From an uncultured cyanobacterium (lineage in GTDB: Bacteria > Cyanobacteriota > Cyanobacteriia > PCC-9006 > JAAUQQ01), in assembly GCA_963718615.1 (NCBI GenBank), contig OY970368.1, positions 1 to 64,000 on the forward strand: DNA of 64,000 nt. The letters are read 5' to 3'. The translations under genes were made by a program, and so were the position numbers. The number at the start of each line of letters is the position of its first letter. Position 1 is the stretch's first letter. This document shows, one piece after another, positions 30,390 to 42,928 of the stretch. A model generated the notes under the pieces. That model saw only the letters and a list, made by a program, of their open reading frames with translations, ran no database searches and was not told the DNA's origin.

Positions 30390-31024
30390 GTCGGATTTGG
30401 CGATGCGAAGGCATTGGGCAGCGTAGTTTTGCAGGATTGGAGAACAGGGATCGCGCATGACTTTAATCGAGAGAATAATCGGATTTCATAGATGAGCTGT
30501 GTGAGCAACATCTGGTTTTGTCGTGGCACTGTGGAGAATCGTGCAGAGATAGTCATTGTCCATAGAAGCCCTGTATCGCTTGAGTTTGAGTGACTTTTGG
30601 AAGCTCTTCTCCTGGGATAATAGGTTGAGCGCTAAACGCCTCAGCAACGAGAAGTTGCGCGGACGGTTTCCCTTGCGAATGCGCGAGGCATCCTCGCGAA
30701 AAACCACATCCAACACCCAGTGAAGCTGGTTCTCAATCCCCCAGTGGGAACGAATCGCTCTTGCCAAGACTGAGGCTTGCGCCTCGCAGCTTGTGAGGTA
30801 AAAGTGAACCTCACGGGTCGTTTTGTTCCACAGCACTCGTTCGCGGCGTACTACCACGATGCTGGCGAGTCCTTCCCACTCGCCCAGTTCAGGCCAATCG
30901 GGCAACTCGCTGATGTCGATCGCCCAGACTTGGCGGGTCTCATCGCGCCCATGAAGTGAAGTGACCCCCAAAACCTGAACAGAAGCGAGAGAGAGTAAGC
31001 TAAAGTCTAGGAGGCAAAAGGGTC

Positions 31025-31327
31025 ATGGCAAAAAGACAGAGAAATTACAGCAGCGAGTTCAAGGCCAAGGTGGTACTGGAAATGGTCAGCGGCCAGCGGT
31101 CGCCGACGGAGGCAAGTCGAGCTCATAAGGTCCATCTATCAGTGCTATGCCGGTGGAAGAATGAATTTCTCAAGCAGGCCCATCGAGCATTTGAAGGGAA
31201 AGAATCAAATGACGAAGCCTCAGAGAGAATAAGCGAATTAGAAAGAATGATAGGTCGATTGACAATGGAGCTAGAAGTGTCAAAAAAAGCTTCGGATGTG
31301 TGGAACCTGAGCGGAAACGGAAAATGA
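31025..31327 (+). CDS. IS3 OrfA
   Basis: RNYSSEFKAKVVLE HTH and leucine zipper; slippery A7G at 31282-31289. Confidence 0.9.
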   Translation: MAKRQRNYSSEFKAKVVLEMVSGQRSPTEASRAHKVHLSVLCRWKNEFLKQAHRAFEGKESNDEASERISELERMIGRLTMELEVSKKASDVWNLSGNGK

Positions 31328-32169
31328 TAGAGGAGTTCAAGGAAGACTATCCCATTCAAATTATTTGCGATGTGATTGGATACAGTCGAAGCCGATATTA
31401 CTACAAGCCGAATTCAGAGAAAGAAGATGAAGACGAAAAGCTCAGAGTAGCGATTATCGAAGTTGCAGGAAGATATCCGACTTACGGTTACAGACGGATA
31501 ACGAAACAACTTCAGCGAGAAGGATGGAGTGTCAACCATAAGCGAGTGAGTCGTCTGATGAGGCAGTTAGGTCTACTAGCTCAAAAGCGGGTGAGGCGGA
31601 AGCGAACGACGAACAGTGTGCATGGCTATCGGCGTTATCCAAATCTGGAGAAAGGGCTGTTGGTAATGCGTCCTGAGCAGGTGTGGGTGGCGGACATCAC
31701 CTATATCCGCTTGAAGGAGGAGTTTGTCTATCTGGCAGTGGTGATGGATGTATTCACCCGCAGTATACGAGGATGGCACCTGGATAAGACAATGGAGAAG
31801 AGCTTGACGATAACAGCACTGGAGAAGGGATTGATGAAAGCAATTCCCGAGATACATCATTCAGATCAAGGGGTGCAATATGCAGCGAATGACTATGTAA
31901 AAATGTTGGAAGAACACAACGTTAAGATTAGTATGGCAGCAGTCGGGAAAGCCTGGGAGAATGGATATGCGGAAAGATTAATGAGGACGATCAAAGAAGA
32001 AGAAGTAGACCTATCAGAATACCGAAACTTTAGTGAGGTCTATGAGCGAATAGAAGAGTTTCTAGAGGAAGTGTATATGAAGAAAAGAATCCACTCGTCA
32101 TTGAGCTATTTGACACCGGCTGAATTTGAAGAAAAGTGGATGCGCGGGCAACAGAATGCAGAAGTGTGA
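31300..32169 (+). CDS. IS3 OrfB DDE transposase (-1 frame)
   Basis: YGYRRI, WVADITYI, HHSDQG.QY, ENGYAER and HSSL.YLTP. Confidence 0.93.
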   Translation: MEPERKRKMIEEFKEDYPIQIICDVIGYSRSRYYYKPNSEKEDEDEKLRVAIIEVAGRYPTYGYRRITKQLQREGWSVNHKRVSRLMRQLGLLAQKRVRRKRTTNSVHGYRRYPNLEKGLLVMRPEQVWVADITYIRLKEEFVYLAVVMDVFTRSIRGWHLDKTMEKSLTITALEKGLMKAIPEIHHSDQGVQYAANDYVKMLEEHNVKISMAAVGKAWENGYAERLMRTIKEEEVDLSEYRNFSEVYERIEEFLEEVYMKKRIHSSLSYLTPAEFEEKWMRGQQNAEV

Positions 32170-33606
32170 TAAAAGTAAAATAACTCTCGCTTAGGCCAGA
32201 TCTTTCTGTCCAAAGGAAGGGGTTCACTTCAAAGCGTTTCCTGACTTTGGGCAAAGTCGAATTCGATTCCCTCCCACTGGTTCGCCTCTGCGGCCTCGAC
32301 CCAGTCTTTGACCAAGCCGTAGAGATTCGCGTGATTGGCCTTGAGCGTTAGGACATAGTCTGCCCCCTTGCCCCGAATCTGCTTGGCAATCGCCTTTTGA
32401 GTCCCCATCGCATCAATCGTTACGATACAACCGTCCAGGGCGAGCATGTCCAGCAGCTTCGGAATCGCCGTGATCTCATTCGACTTTCTGTCCACCGGCA
32501 TTTGACCGAGCACCAAACGATGCTCGCTGGCCCAGGCACTGACTTGATGCAGCGCTTTGAGCCTCTGGTTGCGGTCATAGGAGCCCCGTTGCGTTTTGCC
32601 ATCCAAGGCAATCAGCTTGGCACTTCCCCCGTAGCTCACCAGCAGCTCCTGCACCCATTGCCGGAATCCCCGCTCGAAGGCGTCCGCATCAAGATGCTCA
32701 AACACCCGCTCAATCGTATCGTGGGACGGAATACCGAACGGTAAGTCCAGAAAGCTTTCCAGCCACTTTTGTTTGCTACGTCCGTACACTTCTATCTCCT
32801 CCCAGTGCTCCGCCCCGCACAACACTGCCAACAGCGAGATTCCGATAATTGATAGCAGAGGATGCCAGTAACGCCTATCACGCCTGGGGTCTTTGAGTCC
32901 CTCGAATGCTTTCAGCCAGCCGCCCGGCGGCTGGCAACCTTCCCAAGACGGCTCTTTCCTAGCGGCCTGGAATCCTTCTGGCTTGACGCCAGCAACTTTG
33001 GGGGGATTCAGCATCTGCAAGTACCTATAGGCTTTACTCTCTCAGCTTTCCCTCTCTGACTCTCTCATCTTTTTCTCTCTGCTAAAGTGATGCGTTCGCC
33101 CTGGATTGGAGAAGTGAGGTTGGCGAATTCGGCGAAGTGGAAATGGGCTTCGCCGCGCATTCCGAGGCCGGGTTTGAAGTTGATAATTTTGGCGATCCTT
33201 CGGAGCTTGGCGAAGCCAATCGCATTAAAGTTCCGACCGGCTTGGATGATGGCTTGGATGGCGTTGTCATTGAGGGTGGAGTAGTGGCGATCGCCTATCT
33301 GAATATTCTGGCCTTGGCCGATGTAGATGTTGTATTTGCCGTCGAGTTGCTGGACGGTTTCGGGGCTGCGGCTGAGGTATTGACGTAGGATGGCTAGGTC
33401 GGTCGGGGTTGGGTTTCCGGTTTCGATGCGTTGCAAGATTTGCTTGAGTCCATCGGGGAGGAGCATCGGATTTTGGGGCTGCTGGGAATAAGGTTTCTGG
33501 TTTGAGTTTTATTGTAGTTTGGGTGCTGATTATTACGCTGTTGGGGGGGGGTGAGGCATACTGAAGGCAGTTCAGATTTGCCCTCCTTAAATTTTTCTGA
33601 AGCCCT

Positions 33607-36600
33607 ATGGCGACGCCGGATGAGCTATTGCTTTTGGTAGACCGCATTCTCAGCATGGTTGGGGATGAGGGAATTGAGTTGGAGCGGTTGCAACGGATGG
33701 AGGGTGGGCAGGGGGTGATTCAGTATGTTGTCCAGATTGGGAAGTACAACACGAATGTGGGGCAGGGTGAGGGGATTGAGATTGGCGATCGCCTGGATCG
33801 CTCAATTCTAGAAGAAATTCGAGATTTGTTGCGATCTCAACTCGCTCCACCACCAACCGAAATTGACTGGCAGCAGGTGAGCCGATCGCTCCTCAATCAG
33901 CAAATCCAGCGCCTGACCACGAACCCGCTGACCCATGCCGAGGGCATTGCCTATCGGACAGAGCAGGTGTACGTGCCGCTGGGGTTGGTGGAGCGCAAGC
34001 AGGTGTCGCGTCGCCGGGAGGATGTGTCGCCGGAGCAAGGCTCGTTGCTGTATGAGGAGACGGAGATTATCCAGAAGTTTGAGCAGGGGACGTTTCTGGA
34101 GCAGGTGTTGCGGCAGGGGCAGAGTCCTCGGAGTGGGGGGCGACGGATTGCGGTGATTGGGGAGCCGGGAGCGGGGAAGACGACGCTGTTGCAGCAGATG
34201 GCCCGGTGGGTGGCGGAAAATATTGAGGGGGCGATGGCAATTTGGGTGTCGTTGGCAGATTTGCAGGGGCGATCGCTGGAGGATTATCTGCTGGAGCAGT
34301 GGTTGCCAGCAGCGGTGCAGCAGCAGGGACGGGCGGAGGCTTCGACCCAGGTAAAGGATGCATTGGTGGCGCAGTTTCGGGCGGGGCGGGTGTGGCTGTT
34401 GCTGGATGGGGTGGATGAAATGCCGGTGGCGGCGGGCAATCCGTTGAGTGAGATGGAGCGGCAGGTGCGGTTGGGGGGCTTATTGGCGCAGGCGCGGATC
34501 GTGTTGACTTGTCGGTTGAATCTATGGGATGGCGATCGGCATGCGCTGGATACGTTTGATGTGTATCGGACGTTGGAGTTTGCTTATCCGGGGCAAGTGG
34601 AGCAGTTTGTGGAGCAGTGGTTTGGGGCGTTGCCAGAGGCGCAAGTGGGGCAGGCGGAGAAGCTGTGTGAGGCGTTGCGGCAACCGGGGAAGGAACGGCT
34701 GCTGGATTTAGTGAAGAATCCGCTGCGGTTGACGCTGTTGTGTTTCAACTGGTATTTGGGGGAGGGGACGCTGCCGGAGACGAAGGCGGGATTGTATGAG
34801 CAGTTTGTGGCGGATTTCTATGAGTGGAAGCGTGAGCGGTTTCCGACGACAGCGGCGCAGCGGCGGCGGTTGAATGCGGCGTTGGGGGAGTTGGCGCGGG
34901 AGGCGATCGACAAGGAGGAAACGCGGTTTCGGCTACGGCATGACTTTGTGTGTGAGTTTTTGGGTGAGCCGGATGAACCTGATTCGTTGTTTCAGATAGC
35001 GTTGCGGTTGGGCTGGCTGAATCAAATCGGAGTGGATGAAGAAAATCGGCGAAAGGCGGTGTATGCGTTTTTTCATCCTACGTTTCAGGAGTATTTTGCG
35101 GCGTTAGCTATCAGGAATTGGGATTTTTTCCTGCCCTATGAACACAATAACGTCTCTCCCAAACCCATAGAAGGTAAAGACTATAGGATATTCGATACCA
35201 ACTGGCAAGAAACTATTCTAATGTGGAGCGGAAAATCACAGGAGTACGACAATAGAAGGGCATTTATCAAAGCTCTGATTGATTTTCAAGGCGGATGTAG
35301 CAATTTTTACTCCTACAGGGCATATTTCTTGGCTGCAATTGTTGCATCACAGATCGGCGAGCAAGAGTTATCCAAAGAAACTATAATAAATTTGATCGAT
35401 TTGAGCTTCTTCACTAGATTTGAGCCAACAGCAGATGCTGATAAATACTGGCTGCATTGTCCAGTTCAAGAACAAGCAAAAGAAATACTGCAATTCACGA
35501 AGCGGAGTATTGCGATTGACGAACTAATTCAAGCAATAGACATAACAAGCAATTTATATAAACAGAATGACCTGGCTGAATTGATGGGTAAAATCAGCCT
35601 GAAACATCCCAGAGCCATTGAATTTTTAACTCAATTAATGAATCGCTCTGAACATAAATTTTCCACTGTGGATATAGCAAAGAGTCTATGGCTTGTCGAT
35701 CCAGGAAATCTCAACGCAGTCAATAAATTTATTGACTTGCTCAGCCCTGAAGAAGAAAACATGGTGTCAAGCCGCGCTGCTCAGGTAGTAGCGAGTAATA
35801 ATATTCAATCTCCTGGAATTATTTCTGCTTTAATTAACTTGGCCAAAAAAGACGGAAATGACTTCACCCTCAGTTCACAAGAAGTTTTGAGAGGATTAGA
35901 GAAATTTGGAATCCGTAATAGATCTATAATTGACACTGTGATTAATTTAATTGATATAGCTAAAATTGATAAAAGTCATGAAAATCAGCGCGCCCTAATT
36001 CGAACTCTTGGAGAAATTGGATTGGAAGATTTAAAGGCATTGAGCTATCTAATCAATCTACTGGATAAAGTTGATGATGAACCTTCTCGGTGGTTGATTG
36101 CTGACAGCATCGGAAGAATCGGCAATAAAAGTCCGAAAACAATCTCTATTTTAACTAATTTAACTTCTGAATGCGAGCATGAATGGACTCGCCAACAAGC
36201 GGCTGAAAGCCTTCTGAAAATTGTGCCCGATCATCCTGACGCATTGAATTTACTTGTAGATTTATTATATGTTACAAAGAATTGGCGGACTCAGCATCGA
36301 ATAATCCGAAGCTTAGAGAAAGTAGGTTGCGGAAAGAGATTGGCAATTGAAAATCTAATTAGATTTGTTGACCAACAGTTCGATCAACGTAGTTGCAATG
36401 AACATTGTCTTTATATTTGCGAACAAGCTGCTGAAGTTCTAGGAAAAATAGATCCTGGCAATGAGAAAGCTACTCACATTTTGATTGAACTACTCAATAA
36501 TGAGGATAATAAACCAGGCACTAACAGAAATATCATTTGGAAACTGGGAGATATTGGAAAAGGCAATATCAAAGCAGTCGAAGCTTTAACTCATTTTTTT

Positions 36601-36876
36601 GAAAAAAAGTATAATGTCGAAGACTCTTTTGTCAAGTACTTGCATCAGAACAACATTTCATCTATACCTAGAAGTCTATGTAAAATTATGTCTATTGAAT
36701 CTTATCAATTAGTGATTCAGCATTTAAAAATATATCTATCTGAAGAATCGTACAAGGACGATTTTGACCGATTTAAATCTGCTTATGAGGTAGTTTGGCA
36801 CTGCGCTCAAAGTATGAGCTATACCGACTTTTATAGCGCATGGCATAGTGTTTATTCAGGGATGGAGCAAAAGTAG
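33607..36876 (+). CDS. NACHT NTPase with EAD10-like N-terminus and HEAT-like C-terminal repeats
   Basis: GEPGAGKTT, LLLDGVDE, LTCR, NPLRL and FFHPTFQEYFAA; repeated AA..LG.I helices. Confidence 0.92.
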   Translation: MATPDELLLLVDRILSMVGDEGIELERLQRMEGGQGVIQYVVQIGKYNTNVGQGEGIEIGDRLDRSILEEIRDLLRSQLAPPPTEIDWQQVSRSLLNQQIQRLTTNPLTHAEGIAYRTEQVYVPLGLVERKQVSRRREDVSPEQGSLLYEETEIIQKFEQGTFLEQVLRQGQSPRSGGRRIAVIGEPGAGKTTLLQQMARWVAENIEGAMAIWVSLADLQGRSLEDYLLEQWLPAAVQQQGRAEASTQVKDALVAQFRAGRVWLLLDGVDEMPVAAGNPLSEMERQVRLGGLLAQARIVLTCRLNLWDGDRHALDTFDVYRTLEFAYPGQVEQFVEQWFGALPEAQVGQAEKLCEALRQPGKERLLDLVKNPLRLTLLCFNWYLGEGTLPETKAGLYEQFVADFYEWKRERFPTTAAQRRRLNAALGELAREAIDKEETRFRLRHDFVCEFLGEPDEPDSLFQIALRLGWLNQIGVDEENRRKAVYAFFHPTFQEYFAALAIRNWDFFLPYEHNNVSPKPIEGKDYRIFDTNWQETILMWSGKSQEYDNRRAFIKALIDFQGGCSNFYSYRAYFLAAIVASQIGEQELSKETIINLIDLSFFTRFEPTADADKYWLHCPVQEQAKEILQFTKRSIAIDELIQAIDITSNLYKQNDLAELMGKISLKHPRAIEFLTQLMNRSEHKFSTVDIAKSLWLVDPGNLNAVNKFIDLLSPEEENMVSSRAAQVVASNNIQSPGIISALINLAKKDGNDFTLSSQEVLRGLEKFGIRNRSIIDTVINLIDIAKIDKSHENQRALIRTLGEIGLEDLKALSYLINLLDKVDDEPSRWLIADSIGRIGNKSPKTISILTNLTSECEHEWTRQQAAESLLKIVPDHPDALNLLVDLLYVTKNWRTQHRIIRSLEKVGCGKRLAIENLIRFVDQQFDQRSCNEHCLYICEQAAEVLGKIDPGNEKATHILIELLNNEDNKPGTNRNIIWKLGDIGKGNIKAVEALTHFFEKKYNVEDSFVKYLHQNNISSIPRSLCKIMSIESYQLVIQHLKIYLSEESYKDDFDRFKSAYEVVWHCAQSMSYTDFYSAWHSVYSGMEQK

Positions 36877-36924
36877 ACTTAGGATAAAATCTTGTTGAAA
36901 AATTTGACGCGTAAAGACATTACT

Positions 36925-39237
36925 CTACTCAACTTTTTTATGGTTGCGTTTTTCGATTTCAGAGATCGGCAACAACAATGTCTCTTCAATTTCCTTTTTT
37001 ATATTGTCACTCAATTCAAAATCTTCATTTAGGCAGTCAATCAAAAAAACATTAGCATTCCAATATAGCTTAATTCTTGCCTTGTTGGAATCCGTAAAGT
37101 TCCAATCATGAGCAATATCACAGTATGAAACTATTATCTTTCTAAATTTTTCGATAAAATCCGGCTGATTTTTATTCCACCAGTCATCATCAAATGATCT
37201 ACCATCAAAAACACTAGAAGGAACTTGATATAGCAACTCTTTTAAAGCCTGCTTGAGATTTAAACTATAGTTTAAACTTAACCCAAATCCAAGGAAGATA
37301 TTTGAGCTTTGTTGCGTCGCTTTAACTATATCGAGATTTAGGCCAAAAGCCTTATCTAATGAATTATTGACATCAATAGACTGATCCATTTGGAGAATTT
37401 TATTAATACTGCTAACAAGACTGCCATTGAATCCGTGAGGCGTCTCAATGTATGATTCAAAATCAACAGCTAAACGCAAATAAAATGCTCTTGCCATCGT
37501 TTTTCTAATGGGATTATTGAATTGACTAGATTTATTGTTTACCCACGTTAAAAACTGTTGATAAATATTTTCAGTACGCAAAATAGAATCGATTTCTTGC
37601 TTCATAGAATTTAGCAAAGTATTAACAGCTTGAGGGGTCATGGAACATCCTAGCAAGAAGATTTGCTTCCAATGAATATCTACAATATGCTTGGCTAAAT
37701 TCTTCCAATCCGCTCGAGCGCAAAACCACTTTGCTACCAAATACTCCTGAAAAGTCAGGTGAGAAAACGACCAAAGTCCCTTCGCCCTCTCAATAAGCAA
37801 TCCATGTTGCTGCGAGATCGCCCTCAACACCCCCCGACTCTCCCGCACCTCAATCCCCAAAAACTCCGCAATATACCCCTCAATCTCCGCCTGCTCAAAC
37901 AACACATACTGCGCTTGCTCAAACTTCTTCACCGCCAGATAGCCCAATAGCTCCAACTTCCGCTCCACCGACAAATCGCGATAAATCTCATCCCGCTCAA
38001 TCTCCCGCGCCCTGTCCCACTGCTCCAGCAATAGCTCCAACCCCTCCTCATAGAGCTTAGAACGCTTCGAGTAAAACTTCCCCGTCTGCTGAAACACCGC
38101 ACAGGTCAAACTCAACAAAATCGGGGTAATCGCCAATTCCCGAATCGGCTTGTTCTCCTCCCGAAAAAGCTGATCCAGAAATGCCTTTCCCTTTGCCTGT
38201 CCTACGGTGAGATCCCCGCAAACCGTCTGAAACCAATGCTCCGAAAATGCCCTCACCTGCGGATCATTAAAATCCGCCACCTCCACAGCATCAAACCGCT
38301 CAAACCGCGACTCCTGGCTCTGCGTCCGGCAGGTCACAATCACCTGCACCTGAGGATAGTCCCGCGCAAACCGCTTGATTTGCTTAACGATCGCCTGCCC
38401 ATCCGCCCCCGTCACCTCATCCAACCCATCCAGCAGCACCAGCGATCGCCCCGCCTCCAGCACTAACTGAACCTCTACGGCTGATAACCGCCAGCACCGC
38501 TCCAGATACCGCTCCACCACATAGTCCAGCGATCGCCCATCCTCCACAAACTCCCGCAGCCGAATCAACACCGGAATCCGGTGCGCCTGCAAATTGCCCG
38601 CATTACACTCCGTCACCACCCGCTGCAAATAGGTCGTCTTCCCCGAACCCGGCTTACCCACCACCATCAGGTTCGTATTCCTGTCCAACACCTCCAGCCC
38701 CGACACCCGCTGCCGTTCCTTACCCAACCCCATCCGATCCAAACTGCGATAGCCAGGATTCTGGCTGAAATCTTGCCACAGGTCAGCCAACTCCGATCGG
38801 CGATTGCTGCTCACCTCCTCCAAAATATTCACATCCACAAACAACTCCCCCAACGGTACCCAATGATCCACCCCCCAGAGCGGCATCGTGCCATGCAAGC
38901 GTTGAATGTCATCGTGGAGGCGCGATCGCACCTGCTCCACCAAATCATCGATCGCTGGTAATTCCGCAGTCGCCGATGGCAACGGTGGGGCCAATTGCTC
39001 CCGGATGGCTTGGGCGATCGCTCGGATCTGCTCATCGGTTAGAGTAGTGCGATCGCCAATATGCACTTGCCCCAAAGCTTTTTCGATGTTGACGACGTAC
39101 TTTCCCAGTTGAATTTGACCAGAATTATCACCAGAAGTCAGCCAGAGTTTTAGGCAAGCAATATCATTCGCTGTTAAGCTTCCTTGCTCCAGGTGCGACA
39201 GGATTAAGTCTAGATTCATCGGCTGATTTGAGGTCAT
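36925..39237 (-). CDS. NACHT NTPase with EAD10-like N-terminus and C-terminal helical domain
   Basis: GKPGSGKTT, LLDGLDE, VTCR, TPILL, FSHLTFQEY and terminal Y..AN..L.DCL...IEETLLLP. The ATG at 39237 lies 1 nt after the caspase stop. Confidence 0.92.
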   Translation of the reverse strand: MTSNQPMNLDLILSHLEQGSLTANDIACLKLWLTSGDNSGQIQLGKYVVNIEKALGQVHIGDRTTLTDEQIRAIAQAIREQLAPPLPSATAELPAIDDLVEQVRSRLHDDIQRLHGTMPLWGVDHWVPLGELFVDVNILEEVSSNRRSELADLWQDFSQNPGYRSLDRMGLGKERQRVSGLEVLDRNTNLMVVGKPGSGKTTYLQRVVTECNAGNLQAHRIPVLIRLREFVEDGRSLDYVVERYLERCWRLSAVEVQLVLEAGRSLVLLDGLDEVTGADGQAIVKQIKRFARDYPQVQVIVTCRTQSQESRFERFDAVEVADFNDPQVRAFSEHWFQTVCGDLTVGQAKGKAFLDQLFREENKPIRELAITPILLSLTCAVFQQTGKFYSKRSKLYEEGLELLLEQWDRAREIERDEIYRDLSVERKLELLGYLAVKKFEQAQYVLFEQAEIEGYIAEFLGIEVRESRGVLRAISQQHGLLIERAKGLWSFSHLTFQEYLVAKWFCARADWKNLAKHIVDIHWKQIFLLGCSMTPQAVNTLLNSMKQEIDSILRTENIYQQFLTWVNNKSSQFNNPIRKTMARAFYLRLAVDFESYIETPHGFNGSLVSSINKILQMDQSIDVNNSLDKAFGLNLDIVKATQQSSNIFLGFGLSLNYSLNLKQALKELLYQVPSSVFDGRSFDDDWWNKNQPDFIEKFRKIIVSYCDIAHDWNFTDSNKARIKLYWNANVFLIDCLNEDFELSDNIKKEIEETLLLPISEIEKRNHKKVE

Positions 39238-39238
39238 A

Positions 39239-40522
39239 TCAATTCTGCGATCGCCCCACAGAAACCATCTGAACATTGTGGATAGAGCAGTTAGGAGGCT
39301 CTTGCTCCGCCGATCGTTTCACCCAGACCATCTCGCAATCCGGATCTGGGCACACATACTTCACGGCTTGAAATGCTTGTGGCTGGGTGCTCCCAACAAT
39401 TTTATTACCCATCACTTTATCCCCACCAACTTTATCGCCCGCAACCTTATCACCAGCCACATAATCGCCCTGGGGACTATAGTTATCGCCAATATGGCCT
39501 GTAAAGTGTCCAGTACTGATGTTGTATTTGCCTCGCTGCTCAACATTCTGGCTTCCAAAGGAGTTGCCGCTACCTGTGACGATCGTTGAATCTGAGGCAT
39601 TACCGCCGATCGCTACCGATCGTTCGCCCGAAGCGAGAACCTGCGTCTGAGGCTTAGCCGCAGGAGTAGTCGTTTGCATCGCATCCCAGCCACCGGAAGG
39701 TAAACCCTTGCCCCCTTGAAGTAGCGCGATCGCAAATCGTTCCGTGTCTCGCATTTCAAAGCGTGGAGTTTGCTGCTGCTTCATTGCCGCTGCTGTGGTA
39801 GGGACAGTTTTCCCCAGGTGGTTCGCTAAGTCAAAGACGGTGACTTCTGTTGCACCGGCCTGACTTGCCGCACCTTGTAGGGCTTCAATCAAGTGGTAGG
39901 TGTAGACGCTCATGGCATTGTCCGGTCGAACCCAGGACTTCTCCTTGCCCCGGCAGGAGGTGAACACGACCCGTCCTTCTCCCTGTTGGAGTGCGTCGAG
40001 CATCCCTTTGGGGTCAGCGGTGGGGATGATGCCTTTGGGAAGTCGAGGCAATTCGGCCTTATCTTTAGCGGAGGCCATTCCCGCTGCATGGCAACAGTCG
40101 AGGATGACCAATAGGCGTTTGGCCTTGATGGCTTGCAAGGCTTGATTAAAGTCATCGGCAGGCAAAGCTGTATCCCGCCAGTCATAGGCATCAAAATCGT
40201 GAGGTACAAGGTAATAACGATCGCTGGTTTGTTCTAGCCAGCCATGCCCAGAGTAGTAGACAATGACGGTAGCTTCTGGGTCAGTGGCAACACGATCGCG
40301 CAGCCAAGTGAGATTGTTAAGAATTGCCGATTTGGTTGCCTGCTTGTCATGCAGCAGCCGGACATGTTGATCATTATCGGGATAGGCACAGAGGACGGGA
40401 CTGACTAGAATTTGACGTAGGGCCTGCATATCCTGAACGGTAACGGGGAGGGAAAGTTTGGGATCAGCGCATTGCCCTACGCCAATGAGCAGTGCATATC
40501 CATGATTAAAACGCTCAGTCAT
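39239..40522 (-). CDS. caspase-like peptidase (C14) with a multi-motif low-complexity tail and Zn ribbon
   Basis: ALLIGVG, YYSGHG (His) and LDCCHAAG (Cys); C-terminal CPDPDC...CSIH. Confidence 0.9.
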   Translation of the reverse strand: MTERFNHGYALLIGVGQCADPKLSLPVTVQDMQALRQILVSPVLCAYPDNDQHVRLLHDKQATKSAILNNLTWLRDRVATDPEATVIVYYSGHGWLEQTSDRYYLVPHDFDAYDWRDTALPADDFNQALQAIKAKRLLVILDCCHAAGMASAKDKAELPRLPKGIIPTADPKGMLDALQQGEGRVVFTSCRGKEKSWVRPDNAMSVYTYHLIEALQGAASQAGATEVTVFDLANHLGKTVPTTAAAMKQQQTPRFEMRDTERFAIALLQGGKGLPSGGWDAMQTTTPAAKPQTQVLASGERSVAIGGNASDSTIVTGSGNSFGSQNVEQRGKYNISTGHFTGHIGDNYSPQGDYVAGDKVAGDKVGGDKVMGNKIVGSTQPQAFQAVKYVCPDPDCEMVWVKRSAEQEPPNCSIHNVQMVSVGRSQN

Positions 40523-40551: not shown

Positions 40552-41054
<503 letters not shown>

Positions 41055-41458: not shown

Positions 41459-42007
41459 GTGAGCATCGTGGTCGCACAACACAGTTCAGGTCAGCCCAAG
41501 GTGAGCAAAGCGGAGCAGGCTATTCCGCCGCAAATTGTTGCAGTTCACTGCCAACAGTCCCCCGCCCCTGGGGCTGTGCCTCATTCGCTTAAGCCTCCCA
41601 AACAAACCAAGGAACGCCTGGTCGCCAAATTTACCCAGGATATCGGCGGTGTTGCTAGCTACTGGAACCATATTCCGGCGGCGGAGCTGCGGGCGCTGGA
41701 TGACGTTTTGCAGGAACATCCCGAGGTGAAGGGGGCGATCGCCAACCTCATCCAACAACTCCAGGACGCCAAACAAACCAATACGCGGGTCAACCAGCGC
41801 AACTTTGGCCTCAATCAAACCGCCGCCAAACACGAGCGTACCGCTGACCGTCTCACCCAGGCCAATGCTCAATTAGAAAAAGAAAAGAACGAACTGATTA
41901 AACAAATTCATAACCTCGTTGCAACACTGACAAACTACGAAAACAGCGAACTGCGCCAAGCTGTCATTCGCGTGCGTAACTTCATTGCAGGGATGATCCA
42001 GCCATGA
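41459..42007 (+). CDS. hypothetical coiled-coil protein
   Basis: Heptad-rich C-terminal half; ATGA overlap with the next gene; start codon uncertain. Confidence 0.65.
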   Translation: MSIVVAQHSSGQPKVSKAEQAIPPQIVAVHCQQSPAPGAVPHSLKPPKQTKERLVAKFTQDIGGVASYWNHIPAAELRALDDVLQEHPEVKGAIANLIQQLQDAKQTNTRVNQRNFGLNQTAAKHERTADRLTQANAQLEKEKNELIKQIHNLVATLTNYENSELRQAVIRVRNFIAGMIQP

Positions 42008-42423
42008 CCCCCAACCCCATGACCCCCAACCCCATCACCCGAAAACACCTACGTGCCCTCGGAGCCAGCGACTACCTCGCCAAGCGCCTCACCCGTGACC
42101 TAGCCCCTACGGGCCGAGTCGGACGAGCCAACATCTATGCACCAGCAACTGTTTTAAGCTCGATTCAAAATTTACAACATAATCAACGGATCAAACCAAC
42201 CACTCGCCAGGTTTTAGCTCAGTTGGAAACCGCCTTGCAAAAGACCCAAATCCCAGCCGACGATCCCCTCGCGGCGGCGATGGCGAAAGTTGCAGAAGCC
42301 AATGCTAGGTTTGAGGCAACGGCGCAGCAGGCCCGCAAAGTTTCCCAGGAATTTGATACCTATCGCCGTCAGCGGGGTAAGGATTTTAAGCCGAGCAACA
42401 ATGTCGTTAGTTTTTCGATTTAG
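42004..42423 (+). CDS. hypothetical protein, possible N-terminal DNA-binding fold
   Basis: ITRKHLRALGASDYLAKRLT...GRVGRANIY; helical C-terminus. Confidence 0.7.
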   Translation: MTPNPMTPNPITRKHLRALGASDYLAKRLTRDLAPTGRVGRANIYAPATVLSSIQNLQHNQRIKPTTRQVLAQLETALQKTQIPADDPLAAAMAKVAEANARFEATAQQARKVSQEFDTYRRQRGKDFKPSNNVVSFSI

Positions 42424-42499: not shown

Positions 42500-42928
42500 A
42501 TGGCCTTTGAAGACCTAGAGGCGATCGCCCGAAAAATCCACGCTGCCAATCAAAGCTTTCAACAAACTGCTAAAGATGCCTATCTCTACACCAGACAGCA
42601 CCATGCGGACCCTAAGTACGAAGCCTTTCGCACTAGTGATGAGGGTCGGGTTTGGAAAGCGCAAAAGCTGAAGGAATATGGTCATCGCTGTCCCGAATGC
42701 AATGGTCTAATGAATGATAACAACGCCACGATTGACCACAAATATCCTCGGCGGTACTACCCTTGGTTGGCCTGGGAAGTTGATAATTTCTGGTTGCTTT
42801 GTCGCCGTTGCAATAGAGCCAAAAGCGATAAGGAATGGTCAGTTTATCTGGCAGAGGTGCAAGAACGGCGGGGAGCAGTGGTAGTGCAGCGGATTCTCAG
42901 CTATGCTCCTGCATTGACGGTTTCTTGA
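42500..42928 (+). CDS. HNH endonuclease
   Basis: CPEC, TIDH.YP and N..LLCRRCN..K. Confidence 0.88.
   Translation: MAFEDLEAIARKIHAANQSFQQTAKDAYLYTRQHHADPKYEAFRTSDEGRVWKAQKLKEYGHRCPECNGLMNDNNATIDHKYPRRYYPWLAWEVDNFWLLCRRCNRAKSDKEWSVYLAEVQERRGAVVVQRILSYAPALTVS

Follow-up and report, generated by a model that had tools for sequence, protein, structure and literature searches.

The caspase gene and the two NACHT genes of this locus probably form an EAD10-coupled NLR-caspase conflict system, acting in anti-phage or programmed-cell-death immunity. Most likely, a shared adaptor motif would dock the caspase onto activated sensors. We hold sensor-caspase coupling of some physical kind to be highly likely, its probable form being ordinary docking rather than amyloid templating. 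The evidence comes from domain architectures, from a caspase tail homologous to the EAD10 core, from the confinement of EAD10 to this locus within the genome and, in other genomes, from neighbouring genes and co-varying motifs. The wiring principle is already described and thus not new; the locus is a clear example of it.

Four ORFs in the window (the whole stretch of 64,000 nucleotides analysed) carry a shared motif of ~18 amino acids (Table 1), and the translations at all four positions match exactly the peptides quoted in an earlier, sequence-only reading of the window by a model. When all six frames of the 6,095,823-base genome are scanned, the pattern GKY-x(9-14)-[IV]GD[RN] has four matches, all within 33287-39532; because it was built from these same four copies, the informative part is its absence elsewhere. 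With a looser pattern there are 15 genome matches, of which the 11 outside the locus are unlike the motif. Across the 6.1-Mb genome, EAD10 exceeds the Pfam cut-off three times, each time within this locus; only two weak matches come in addition, one of them in the caspase tail. Across the locus, Pfam reports NACHT in two proteins and Peptidase_C14 in one, as the sequence-only reading had proposed; of the four motif-bearing ORFs, three receive an EAD10 match. In those three (the remnant, NACHT1 and NACHT2; E 7.9e-21, 2.8e-11 and 4.6e-15, respectively), the motif is the beta core of a full EAD10 domain (PF19954). The proposed identity of the motif with EAD10 therefore stands for these ORFs; in the caspase it is sub-threshold and extends to the core only.

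Table 1. Features of the locus (positions in the window)
Feature	Position	Strand	Evidence or remarks
Nested insertion sequences: ISAs1-like (30445-30956 + 32232-33103) split by IS3-like (30957-32231)	30445..33103	.	Pfam DDE_Tnp_1_assoc/DDE_Tnp_1, rve/HTH_21
5' remnant of third EAD10-bearing gene; EAD10 33239-33463, motif 33287-33340	33104..33466	-	Pfam EAD10
NACHT1, 1089 aa: EAD10 33607-33837, NACHT NTPase 34141-34623, HEAT repeats, NCC-H 36760-36846	33607..36876	+	Pfam: NACHT E 1.2e-14, HEAT_2 2e-24, NCC-H 7.3e-15
B-type core of NACHT1 EAD10, GKYNTNVGQGEGIEIGDR	33739..33792	+	Translation
NACHT2, 770 aa: EAD10 39004-39228, NACHT NTPase 38227-38670, NCH2 helical domain 36967-37257	36925..39237	-	Pfam: NACHT E 4.8e-18, NCH2 1.5e-25
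B-type core of NACHT2 EAD10, GKYVVNIEKALGQVHIGDR	39049..39105	-	Translation
Caspase (Peptidase_C14), 427 aa, ATG 40522	39239..40522	-	Pfam Peptidase_C14 E 1.7e-20; PADLOC 'caspase' 2.2e-22
Zinc-ribbon-like Cys-Cys...Cys-His module, caspase C-terminus	39254..39370	-	Conserved in 23 aligned orthologues
B-type EAD10 core, caspase tail, GKYNISTGHFTGHIGDN	39482..39532	-	Translation; motif of the sequence-only reading
A-type EAD10-like core, caspase tail, GERSVAIGGNASDSTIVTG	39572..39628	-	hhalign vs A-type EAD10

Each NACHT protein begins with an EAD10 adaptor, continues with a NACHT NTPase and ends in a further region (HEAT plus NCC-H in NACHT1, NCH2 in NACHT2). The Walker A and B motifs can be read in both translations (GEPGAGKTT and LLLDGVDE in NACHT1, GKPGSGKTT and LLDGLDE in NACHT2), and Pfam finds no enzymatic effector domain in either protein. 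Because EAD10 is confined to this locus and the NACHT proteins lack an enzymatic effector domain, the natural reading is that both sensors use the one caspase. NACHT1 is convergent with NACHT2, which forms an operon with the caspase: read directly, the junction has the caspase stop (TGA, 39241-39239), one base, and the NACHT2 ATG at 39237. A start at ATG 39276 would lengthen the NACHT2 ORF and make it share 38 nt with the caspase. This longer ORF was rejected; the EAD10 match begins at residue 17 there, versus residues 1-4 in relatives. The start is therefore likely at 39237, which upholds the 1-nt gap claimed earlier.

The caspase has both catalytic residues intact, His in YYSGHGW and Cys in LDCCHAAG, and in an alignment both (His93 and Cys144) are invariant across 27 relatives; the start Met is the same in orthologues. 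AF2 models the caspase domain (residues 1-284) with confidence, and Foldseek matches this domain best to that of MALT1 (E 2.5e-10). Residues 385-423 form the zinc-ribbon-like module, modeled with two strands at pLDDT 60-88. No Pfam family matches this module at threshold (best zf-CGNR, E 0.15), and caspase paralogues have TIR or CHAT, or nothing, in its place. Between these two confident parts, the tail (285-384) has pLDDT <50 and is predicted to be disordered.

The shared motif lies in this tail. Pfam EAD10 scores the B core at 12.6-13.7 bits (E 0.067-0.14, profile positions 33-62), below the cut-off of 24.1 bits. When the caspase family is aligned with EAD10 by hhalign, the probability is 95.3% (E 2.4e-8, 33 columns); it is 97.6% (E 3.9e-12) in a biased variant for which tails were pre-selected with an EAD10 HMM. 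These alignments indicate that the tail is homologous to the EAD10 core. The caspase holds the beta core only; by Pfam's own threshold, it has no EAD10. A second EAD10-type core in the tail, of A type, is absent from the sequence-only reading. With 14 A-type EAD10 domains, hhalign gives the caspase alignment a probability of 97.7% (E 2.5e-12, caspase 265-322 matching EAD10 13-67). Over the whole genome, the A-type profile finds the caspase tail as its sole match (E 2.8e-8) and no A-type sensor. Among the 23 aligned zinc-ribbon-type orthologues, the A motif is kept in all 23 and the B motif in 16, so that the conservation expected of the B motif is found in most orthologues and is lost in seven. 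Thus the better-conserved motif is partnerless here, and the partnered one is less conserved.

Gene order and motif similarity were then compared in a survey set of 80 related loci, 13 of which were left out where the caspase-ORF pattern failed. A custom-built EAD10 HMM matches in 48 of the 80, and Pfam EAD10 was found in every one of the 43 neighbour ORFs submitted. The further domains of these 43 are NACHT (13), NB-ARC (5) or another STAND-type ATPase (7), with 14 having none and one each having WD40, TPR-GreABC-PIN, GUN4 or a phycobilisome-like domain. Caspases of the same family often lie directly upstream of EAD10-bearing STAND genes; the co-occurrence of the genes thus extends to other genomes. 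For 16 of 68 caspase ORFs, a full EAD10 ORF on the same strand starts -13 to +119 nt from the caspase stop. A full EAD10 ORF lies within 3 kb of 25/35 caspases with a tail EAD10-core match versus 9/33 without (Fisher p 6e-4, for loci that are not phylogenetically independent).

The caspase tail motif and the EAD10 core of the neighbour also co-vary. In 20 non-redundant pairs, their summed similarity is 1019 versus 738 +/- 47 for shuffled pairs, and none of 20000 shuffles reaches 1019; the true partner ranks first in six pairs and in the top three in 12. The window's own caspase-NACHT2 pair scores 34 and ranks 13/20, showing no special similarity. The earlier proposal that both sensors converge on the caspase is favored by the restriction of EAD10 and the effectorless NACHT proteins; the co-variation supports coupling across the loci, but not for this pair in particular. 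In the loci examined, the caspase side consists of the core, sometimes with the preceding segment, never of a whole EAD10, and without the C-terminal helix; it therefore departs from the idea of the same domain on both partners.

These data bear on whether the genes are coupled at all. The caspase B motif could be a decaying vestige and the genes could simply cluster in a variable, IS-rich defence island. Some other regulator, if any, would then act on the caspase via its A motif or zinc ribbon, and the NACHT proteins would signal by different means. A B motif that is sub-threshold, divergent from the local sensors and lost in some orthologues would fit this, as would the partnerless A motif, the IS and defence-like genes on either side, and the lack of DNA-level conservation of the locus among the 30 relatives searched. 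We nevertheless consider it quite improbable, given the 1-nt gap, NACHT proteins with no effector domain of their own, EAD10 at this locus only, and the recurrence in other genomes of a caspase followed by an EAD10-STAND gene with co-varying motifs.

Orthocaspases of cyanobacteria favor basic P1 residues, and basic residues precede or begin the motif (R-G-K in the caspase tail). The motif might thus be a protease recognition site: close to its start, at conserved basic residues, the caspase would cut both itself, in the tail, and the sensors, in their N-terminal domains. This is very unlikely: the conservation spans 17-25 residues, mostly G, N, I and D, beyond any basic residue; some co-varying pairs have no K or R (for example, L036-L040); and loop length and the second strand co-vary as well (loci L017, L024, L042 and L078), which is unexpected for a cleavage site.

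For the docking of the caspase by the shared motif, we infer the steps of binding, oligomerisation and activation, as well as substrates and biological role, as follows. The C-terminal region of each NACHT protein would be the sensor region; on sensing a ligand, the NACHT NTPase would oligomerise and cluster the EAD10 domains. Their beta cores could then bind the matching core motif in the otherwise disordered caspase tail, and the caspase, thereby concentrated, would be activated by proximity and cleave cellular targets.

Alternatively, the contact could be amyloid-type templating, BASS- or HET-s-like, in which the EAD10 core would supply a single rung of a cross-beta or beta-solenoid fold. 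Sensors, once oligomerised, would nucleate this fold; one or more naked rungs of the disordered caspase tail would copy it, and the caspase would be polymerised and activated in a self-propagating manner. As in the NLR/effector amyloid pairs covered in the available part of Dyrka et al. 2020 (10.1101/2020.01.06.895854) and in Bab/Agp, as far as the accessible text goes (10.1101/2024.11.07.622273), a short G/N/I/V-rich motif recurs in the C-terminal part of the effector and in the N-terminal part of the NLR encoded next to it, by genes that are collinear and lie close together. On the effector, the motif is short and lies within a tail predicted to be disordered. The effector has two cores and each sensor has one; the two may be pseudo-repeats of the kind seen in HET-s and some BASS pairs (same source). 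In the cores, N (2.7x), I (2.5x), G (2.3x) and V (1.5x) are over-represented and L (0.28x) and P (0.09x) under-represented, a composition that resembles the bias in that source only broadly; BASS motifs beside a CHAT metacaspase domain are also reported there. The A-motif region is weakly like the YadA-head beta-roll repeat (E 0.0044, below the cut-off).

Even so, we regard templating as unlikely. The sensor motif lies ~40 residues inside a helix-flanked domain rather than at a free N-terminus, and EAD10 is treated as a globular alpha+beta domain by Pfam and Kaur et al. About 75 residues, including the predicted folded zinc-ribbon module, follow the B motif of the caspase, and K is enriched (1.4x), not depleted. 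No RHIM profile match was found at E up to 10, which gives the earlier description of the motif as RHIM-like no direct support. The effector is a caspase, unlike the Bell or Bab pore-formers in the available BASS descriptions. Overall, what the sequence-only reading observed is confirmed, and its interpretation is partly supported.

Among known systems, the docking arrangement is closest to the EAD-coupled NTP-dependent conflict systems of multicellular bacteria (PMC7159879; PMC8195603). The coupling principle was defined by Kaur et al. 2020 (PMC7159879), who in the portion available count EAD10 among the effector-recruiting EADs. Shared features are EAD10 N-terminal to a STAND (NACHT) core, an enzymatic effector that an adjacent gene encodes separately and that bears a homologous stretch, several EAD10 proteins per locus and a host that, judged by its closest relatives, belongs to a filamentous-type cyanobacterial lineage. 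Here, however, the effector has only the beta core (about 17-30 residues), sub-threshold in Pfam and in a predicted disordered tail, with two tandem cores (A-type, B-type) followed by the zinc-ribbon module. Kibby et al. (10.1101/2022.07.19.500537) named NCH2 and NCC-H and, in the accessible text, include 'adaptor' (EAD) N-termini among the architectures; their antiphage proteins likewise have NACHT modules with intact Walker motifs and such C-termini. The proteins tested in that text are mostly single-gene with fused effectors, whereas the effector here is in trans. An analogy with the animal apoptosome and inflammasome (CARD/PYD) is drawn in the available part of Kaur et al. 2020 (PMC7159879): the caspase is recruited in trans by a sensor of the STAND NTPase type, matching adaptors making the link, and one caspase can serve several sensors. 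The adaptor here is unrelated to the Death-fold, and proximity activation is presumed.

A third EAD10 gene was lost to an insertion sequence. The 'fourth gene' of the sequence-only reading is not an intact partner but a fragment truncated by the IS: in its ORF (33065-33466, minus strand), the last 12 codons and the stop (33065) lie inside the ISAs1-like element. Genome self-matches define the IS ends; the one at 33103 follows from identity with an intact copy that lies at genome positions 800324-801704. To the left of the IS, between the mannosidase stop (30389) and the IS end (30445), there is no trace of the rest of the gene. Insertion sequences and other defence-like genes flank the locus (Pfam, PADLOC, genome self-matches), and the remnant contains a 33-nt interspersed repeat at 33191-33223.

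Four ORFs lie between 33065 and 40555; the table collects coordinates of features in and around the locus. Two of the ORFs encode NACHT proteins (NACHT1 and NACHT2) and one encodes a caspase. The proposal under study is that of an NLR-caspase conflict system coupled by EAD10 (Pfam PF19954), in which both NACHT proteins dock on the caspase through EAD10 cores.

Coordinates of features in and around the caspase/NACHT locus
Feature	Coordinates	Strand	Content
ISAs1-like element, two parts	30445-30956 and 32232-33103		by identity to an intact copy at genome 800324-801704
IS3-like element	30957-32231		interrupts the ISAs1-like element
ORF1	33065-33466	minus	133 aa; sole Pfam family EAD10, E 7.9e-21
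Repeat of ~33 nt	33191-33223		immediately after the EAD10 domain of ORF1
NACHT1	33607-36876	plus	1089 aa; EAD10, NACHT, HEAT repeats and NCC-H (Pfam)
Low-GC block	~35000-37750		3' (sensor) halves of the convergent NACHT1 and NACHT2
NACHT2		minus	EAD10, NACHT and NCH2 (Pfam)
Caspase		minus	Peptidase_C14, E 1.7e-20 (Pfam); no other family at E up to 0.01
Caspase stop, TGA	39241-39239	minus	
Five-residue repeats	39416-39481	minus	caspase residues ~348-369; GDKV-type, short, after the B motif
B motif of caspase tail	39482-39532	minus	
A-type-like stretch of caspase tail	39572-39628	minus	upstream of the B motif
Hairpin plus T-run	40587-40569		terminator-like; between MNT-like gene and caspase
Nucleotidyltransferase (MNT-like) gene	40680-41054	minus	fourfold SVLP repeat near the N-terminus
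HNH endonuclease gene and two ORFs without significant Pfam family	42500-42928 and 41459-42423		just beyond the locus

NACHT1 and NACHT2 each combine an NTPase, with Walker A and Walker B intact in the translations, and a C-terminal sensor region, as is expected of bacterial NACHT (NLR-related) proteins; Pfam matches the NACHT domain at E 1.2e-14 and E 4.8e-18, respectively. As in EAD-coupled systems, an EAD is fused to the terminus of the core NTPase in both proteins, and both EAD10 matches exceed the Pfam cut-off of 24.1 bits (residues 1-77 of NACHT1, E 2.8e-11; residues 17-91 of the long NACHT2 ORF, E 4.6e-15). Because the domain begins at residue 17 of that long ORF, as against residues 1-4 in relatives, the likely start of NACHT2 is ATG 39237. 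The sequence-only reading had placed the caspase stop 1 nt from this start, and the junction does read so, with a single base between TGA and ATG. PADLOC recognises no system in NACHT1 or NACHT2, its sole match being a weak P-loop match to mad8 (E 5.8e-4). Counts of promoter-like sites (15, compared with 10.9 +/- 2.8 in shuffles) and terminator-like sites (4, compared with 8.6 +/- 3.4) are uninformative here, the exception being the hairpin-plus-T-run upstream of the caspase. When the locus DNA is compared with that of 30 relatives, short pieces are matched and no syntenic copy is found.

The four peptides by which the ORFs had been linked are exact translations, each at the position quoted for it. 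Over its full length (6,095,823 bases) and in all six frames, the genome contains the pattern GKY-x(9-14)-[IV]GD[RN] four times, always at the locus; the pattern was derived from these same four copies, and so the informative part of the result is its absence elsewhere. The Pfam EAD10 profile likewise gives three matches over its cut-off in the genome, all at the locus, and two weak ones (E 0.29 and 0.92), the weaker of which is the caspase tail.

On the effector side, ATG 40522 is the most likely start of the caspase, since its orthologues start likewise. His93 and Cys144 are intact, and both are invariant among the relatives aligned. In the AlphaFold2 model computed from the caspase alignment, the caspase domain (residues 1-284) is confident, as is a small module at residues 385-423 that has Cys-Cys...Cys-His spacing; the tail between them (residues 285-384) has pLDDT below 50. 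Searches of the PDB by sequence, with the caspase alone and with a family profile, return 0 matches, and therefore the fold was confirmed by a fold search: Foldseek places the MALT1 caspase domain first (E 2.5e-10), followed more weakly by metacaspases and caspases. The protein thus has the His-Cys dyad in a p20-like fold that is characteristic of Peptidase_C14.

Other parts of the protein vary among relatives. The GDKV-type repeats occur only in the closest orthologues (P0001-P0006), and the others have acidic linkers in their place. Further afield (P0007-P0047, P0066 and P0076-P0088), the ends are swapped on the same caspase module, which may carry a C-terminal CHAT, TIR or PF19960 domain or an N-terminal PF19971 domain. 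In a 569-aa ORF at a related locus (L006:982-2691), A and B motifs sit in the linker that joins the caspase to an additional region at the C-terminus, the tail being read to the start of that region; the matching protein, P0036, has TIR matches in Pfam.

To the sequence-only reading, the shared motif looked like EAD10. By the Pfam threshold the copy in the caspase tail is not, scoring 12.6-13.7 bits against the required 24.1 (E 0.067-0.14), with profile positions 33-62 alone matched. By profile-profile comparison it is homologous: hhalign aligns the caspase relatives (27 chosen by full-length similarity, plus four hand-picked short-tailed ones) with 41 EAD10 domains over 33 columns centred on the motif, with a probability of 95.3% and E 2.4e-8. 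A tail alignment pre-selected with an EAD10 HMM, and hence biased, gives 97.6% and E 3.9e-12. Two short-tailed relatives, P0031 and P0073, have a precomputed Pfam EAD10 match. The caspase stretch covers roughly positions 34-69 of EAD10 and lacks the C-terminal helix of the domain. Given this missing helix and the sub-threshold Pfam score, the caspase holds a partial copy of EAD10, not the full domain. Modeled alone with AlphaFold2, the EAD10 domain is predicted with low confidence (pLDDT 62.8, pTM 0.46) to have a pair of helices followed by two short strands and a last helix, which agrees with the alpha+beta character given by Kaur et al. (2020).

The caspase tail also contains a second core. 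EAD10 domains next to the caspase at some related loci have, in the same position between the helices, a core that differs from the GKY...IGD (B-type) one; we call it A-type. The A-type-like stretch of the caspase tail is recovered when the caspase alignment is compared with 14 A-type EAD10 domains (probability 97.7%, E 2.5e-12, 55 columns, caspase residues 265-322). In a search of the genome with the A-type EAD10 profile, this stretch alone is found (E 2.8e-8; the next matches have E 0.08 and 0.41); thus there is no A-type sensor in this genome. A-type EAD10 domains at eight related loci (L010, L011, L013, L014, L016, L021, L050 and L059) score 25-37 bits with the Pfam model, and so the current Pfam profile may under-detect this variant.

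The B motif had been expected to be conserved in caspase orthologues, and this holds in part. Among 23 aligned Zn-ribbon-type caspases (those with the C-terminal Cys-Cys...Cys-His module), drawn from 120 listed relatives, the A motif is kept in all 23 and the B motif in 16, with loss in the other 7. At six loci with a Zn-ribbon-type caspase, the motif types of the caspase cover the sensor types present: the sensors are B-type in the window, L012 and L015 and of both types in L016 and L050, while L018 pairs an A-like sensor with a caspase that lacks the B motif. Close relationships among several of the six loci make this a pattern rather than a statistic.

Scanning contigs with the caspase alignment yields 80 loci, mostly from cyanobacteria, with some from Chloroflexota and Planctomycetota assemblies. 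The expected co-occurrence in other genomes is borne out: a custom EAD10 HMM, built from the three copies in the window and 30 locus matches, has matches in 48 of the 80 loci. Pfam finds EAD10 in 43/43 of the neighbouring ORFs submitted to it. The domain is fused to NACHT in 13 of these, NB-ARC in 5, another STAND-type ATPase in 7, and WD40, TPR-GreABC-PIN, GUN4 and a phycobilisome-like domain in 1 each; in 14, nothing further is recognised. The TPR-GreABC-PIN fusion beside a caspase is at locus L014.

A caspase-ORF pattern recognises 68 ORFs, 13 loci having been dropped where the pattern failed. For 16 of these 68 caspase ORFs, a full EAD10 ORF starts between -13 and +119 nt past the stop on the same strand. 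Caspases with an EAD10 match in the tail have a full EAD10 ORF within 3 kb in 25 of 35 cases, compared with 9 of 33 for those without (Fisher p 6e-4, a value that ignores relatedness and short flanks). Some of these 9 have divergent tails that resemble the unusual core of their own neighbour (L010-L014, L036-L040).

Tails and cores also co-vary. When local-alignment scores of tail against partner core are summed over 20 non-redundant pairs of a caspase and its nearest EAD10, the total is 1019. Shuffling the partners gives 738 +/- 47, and in 20000 shuffles the observed value is reached 0 times; the A/B class split accounts for part of this signal. In 6 pairs the true partner is the best-scoring one, and in 12 it is among the top three. 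For the window's own pair, the score is 34 and the rank 13 of 20; thus the local pair is not specially matched. This rank, the absence of an A-type partner and the fact that 7 of 23 orthologues have lost the B motif all count against docking of NACHT1 and NACHT2 on the caspase through EAD10 cores.

The principle of EAD coupling is already published: Kaur et al. (2020, PMC7159879) define it and place EAD10 among the effector-recruiting adaptors, EAD10 was used to find the TPR-GreABC-PIN system (Kaur et al. 2021, PMC8195603), and EAD adaptors, NCH and NCC-H appear among the bacterial NACHT architectures of Kibby et al. (preprint, 10.1101/2022.07.19.500537). Literature searches on EAD10, on NACHT with caspase and cyanobacteria, and on amyloid signalling with caspase turned up neither an experimental study of EAD10 nor a description of a tandem A/B caspase tail, though figures and supplements of the EAD and BASS papers may already include such a tail, give caspase tails bearing the EAD10 core or identify that core with a BASS family. 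EAD adaptors are known as predictions from comparative genomics, and the locus offers a compact test case: it has a single caspase and two intact sensors, and EAD10 occurs nowhere else in this genome. The comparison contributes three testable details. What the effector carries is a minimal beta core, in a tail predicted to be disordered; two core types can stand in tandem on one caspase; and the core type tracks the sensor type of the locus. Together, these details let one ask whether bacterial NLR-to-caspase signalling works by ordinary docking or by amyloid-like templating, a question that bears on the origin of inflammasome-like signalling.

Templating of the amyloid type between the EAD10 cores of the sensors and the caspase tail strikes us as improbable, although several features recall it. 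The layout, with a motif in the C-terminal region of the effector and in the N-terminal region of the NLR, resembles that of the NLR/effector amyloid pairs described in a preprint by Dyrka et al. (2020, 10.1101/2020.01.06.895854), in which the genes are collinear and tightly spaced, as they are here, and the effector may hold pseudo-repeats; the same preprint reports BASS motifs adjoining a CHAT metacaspase domain. In composition, the EAD10 core (1236 residues from 55 distinct cores) has more N (2.7x), I (2.5x), G (2.3x) and V (1.5x), and less L (0.28x) and P (0.09x), than the long ORFs of this genome, and the A motif has a weak, sub-threshold Pfam match to the YadA-head beta-roll repeat. However, K is enriched 1.4x in the core, unlike in BASS; on the sensors the motif is buried within a helical domain, and on the caspase it lies away from the extreme C-terminus. 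The sequence-only reading had suggested that contacts through the motif are possibly amyloid and RHIM-like, and no support for RHIM is found: with Pfam at E up to 10, the four motif segments match neither RHIM nor any amyloid-motif family, RHIM (BASS3) being the one BASS profile covered.

A more specific form of the idea, which we likewise regard as improbable, is that EAD10 would be a capped templating module rather than an ordinary globular adaptor. The sensor would hold a beta rung between helices and the effector one or two naked rungs in a disordered tail; A and B rungs would serve as an address code wiring one caspase to two sensor classes, and an oligomerised sensor would nucleate an activating cross-beta or beta-solenoid assembly. 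If true, the locus would stand beside fungal HET-s/NWD2 and bacterial Bab/Agp signalling as their counterpart for caspase activation.

ORF1 was proposed as a fourth gene of the system. It does carry EAD10 and the motif, but it is a remnant cut by an insertion sequence, whose boundary at 33103 falls inside the ORF. Native DNA in its frame ends at 33104, and 12 further codons inside the insertion sequence lead to the stop. The insertion sequences are nested, with more copies of both the ISAs1-like and IS3-like elements elsewhere in the genome. Merely 55 bases separate their left end from the stop of a large glycosidase-like ORF, and so nothing further of the gene survives. That ORF1 is an intact protein consisting of EAD10 alone is ruled out by the boundary within the ORF and by the interspersed repeat that follows the domain; a shortened EAD10-only product could still be made. 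Copies of this repeat with 91-100% identity occur at several or many other places in the genome and in five relatives (G001, G003, G004, G005 and G006).

The base composition of the sensor genes is a mosaic. Their 3' halves form one block with GC 0.31-0.39 and GC3 0.24-0.33, in a genome with GC 0.523; the 5' halves have GC 0.52-0.63, GC3 0.52-0.82 and a coding-strand GC skew of ~0.43. This mosaic suggests a chimeric origin of the sensor halves, which may have been acquired or exchanged as one cassette. EAD10-STAND genes at other loci are mostly uniform in GC3, with a smaller drop in L038-L040 and L017.

Upstream of the caspase, the MNT-like gene has a strong PADLOC match to PDC-S09 (E 1.1e-39), and no HEPN partner is seen adjoining it. 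The HNH endonuclease gene and the two family-less ORFs fit a variable, defence-island-like neighbourhood.
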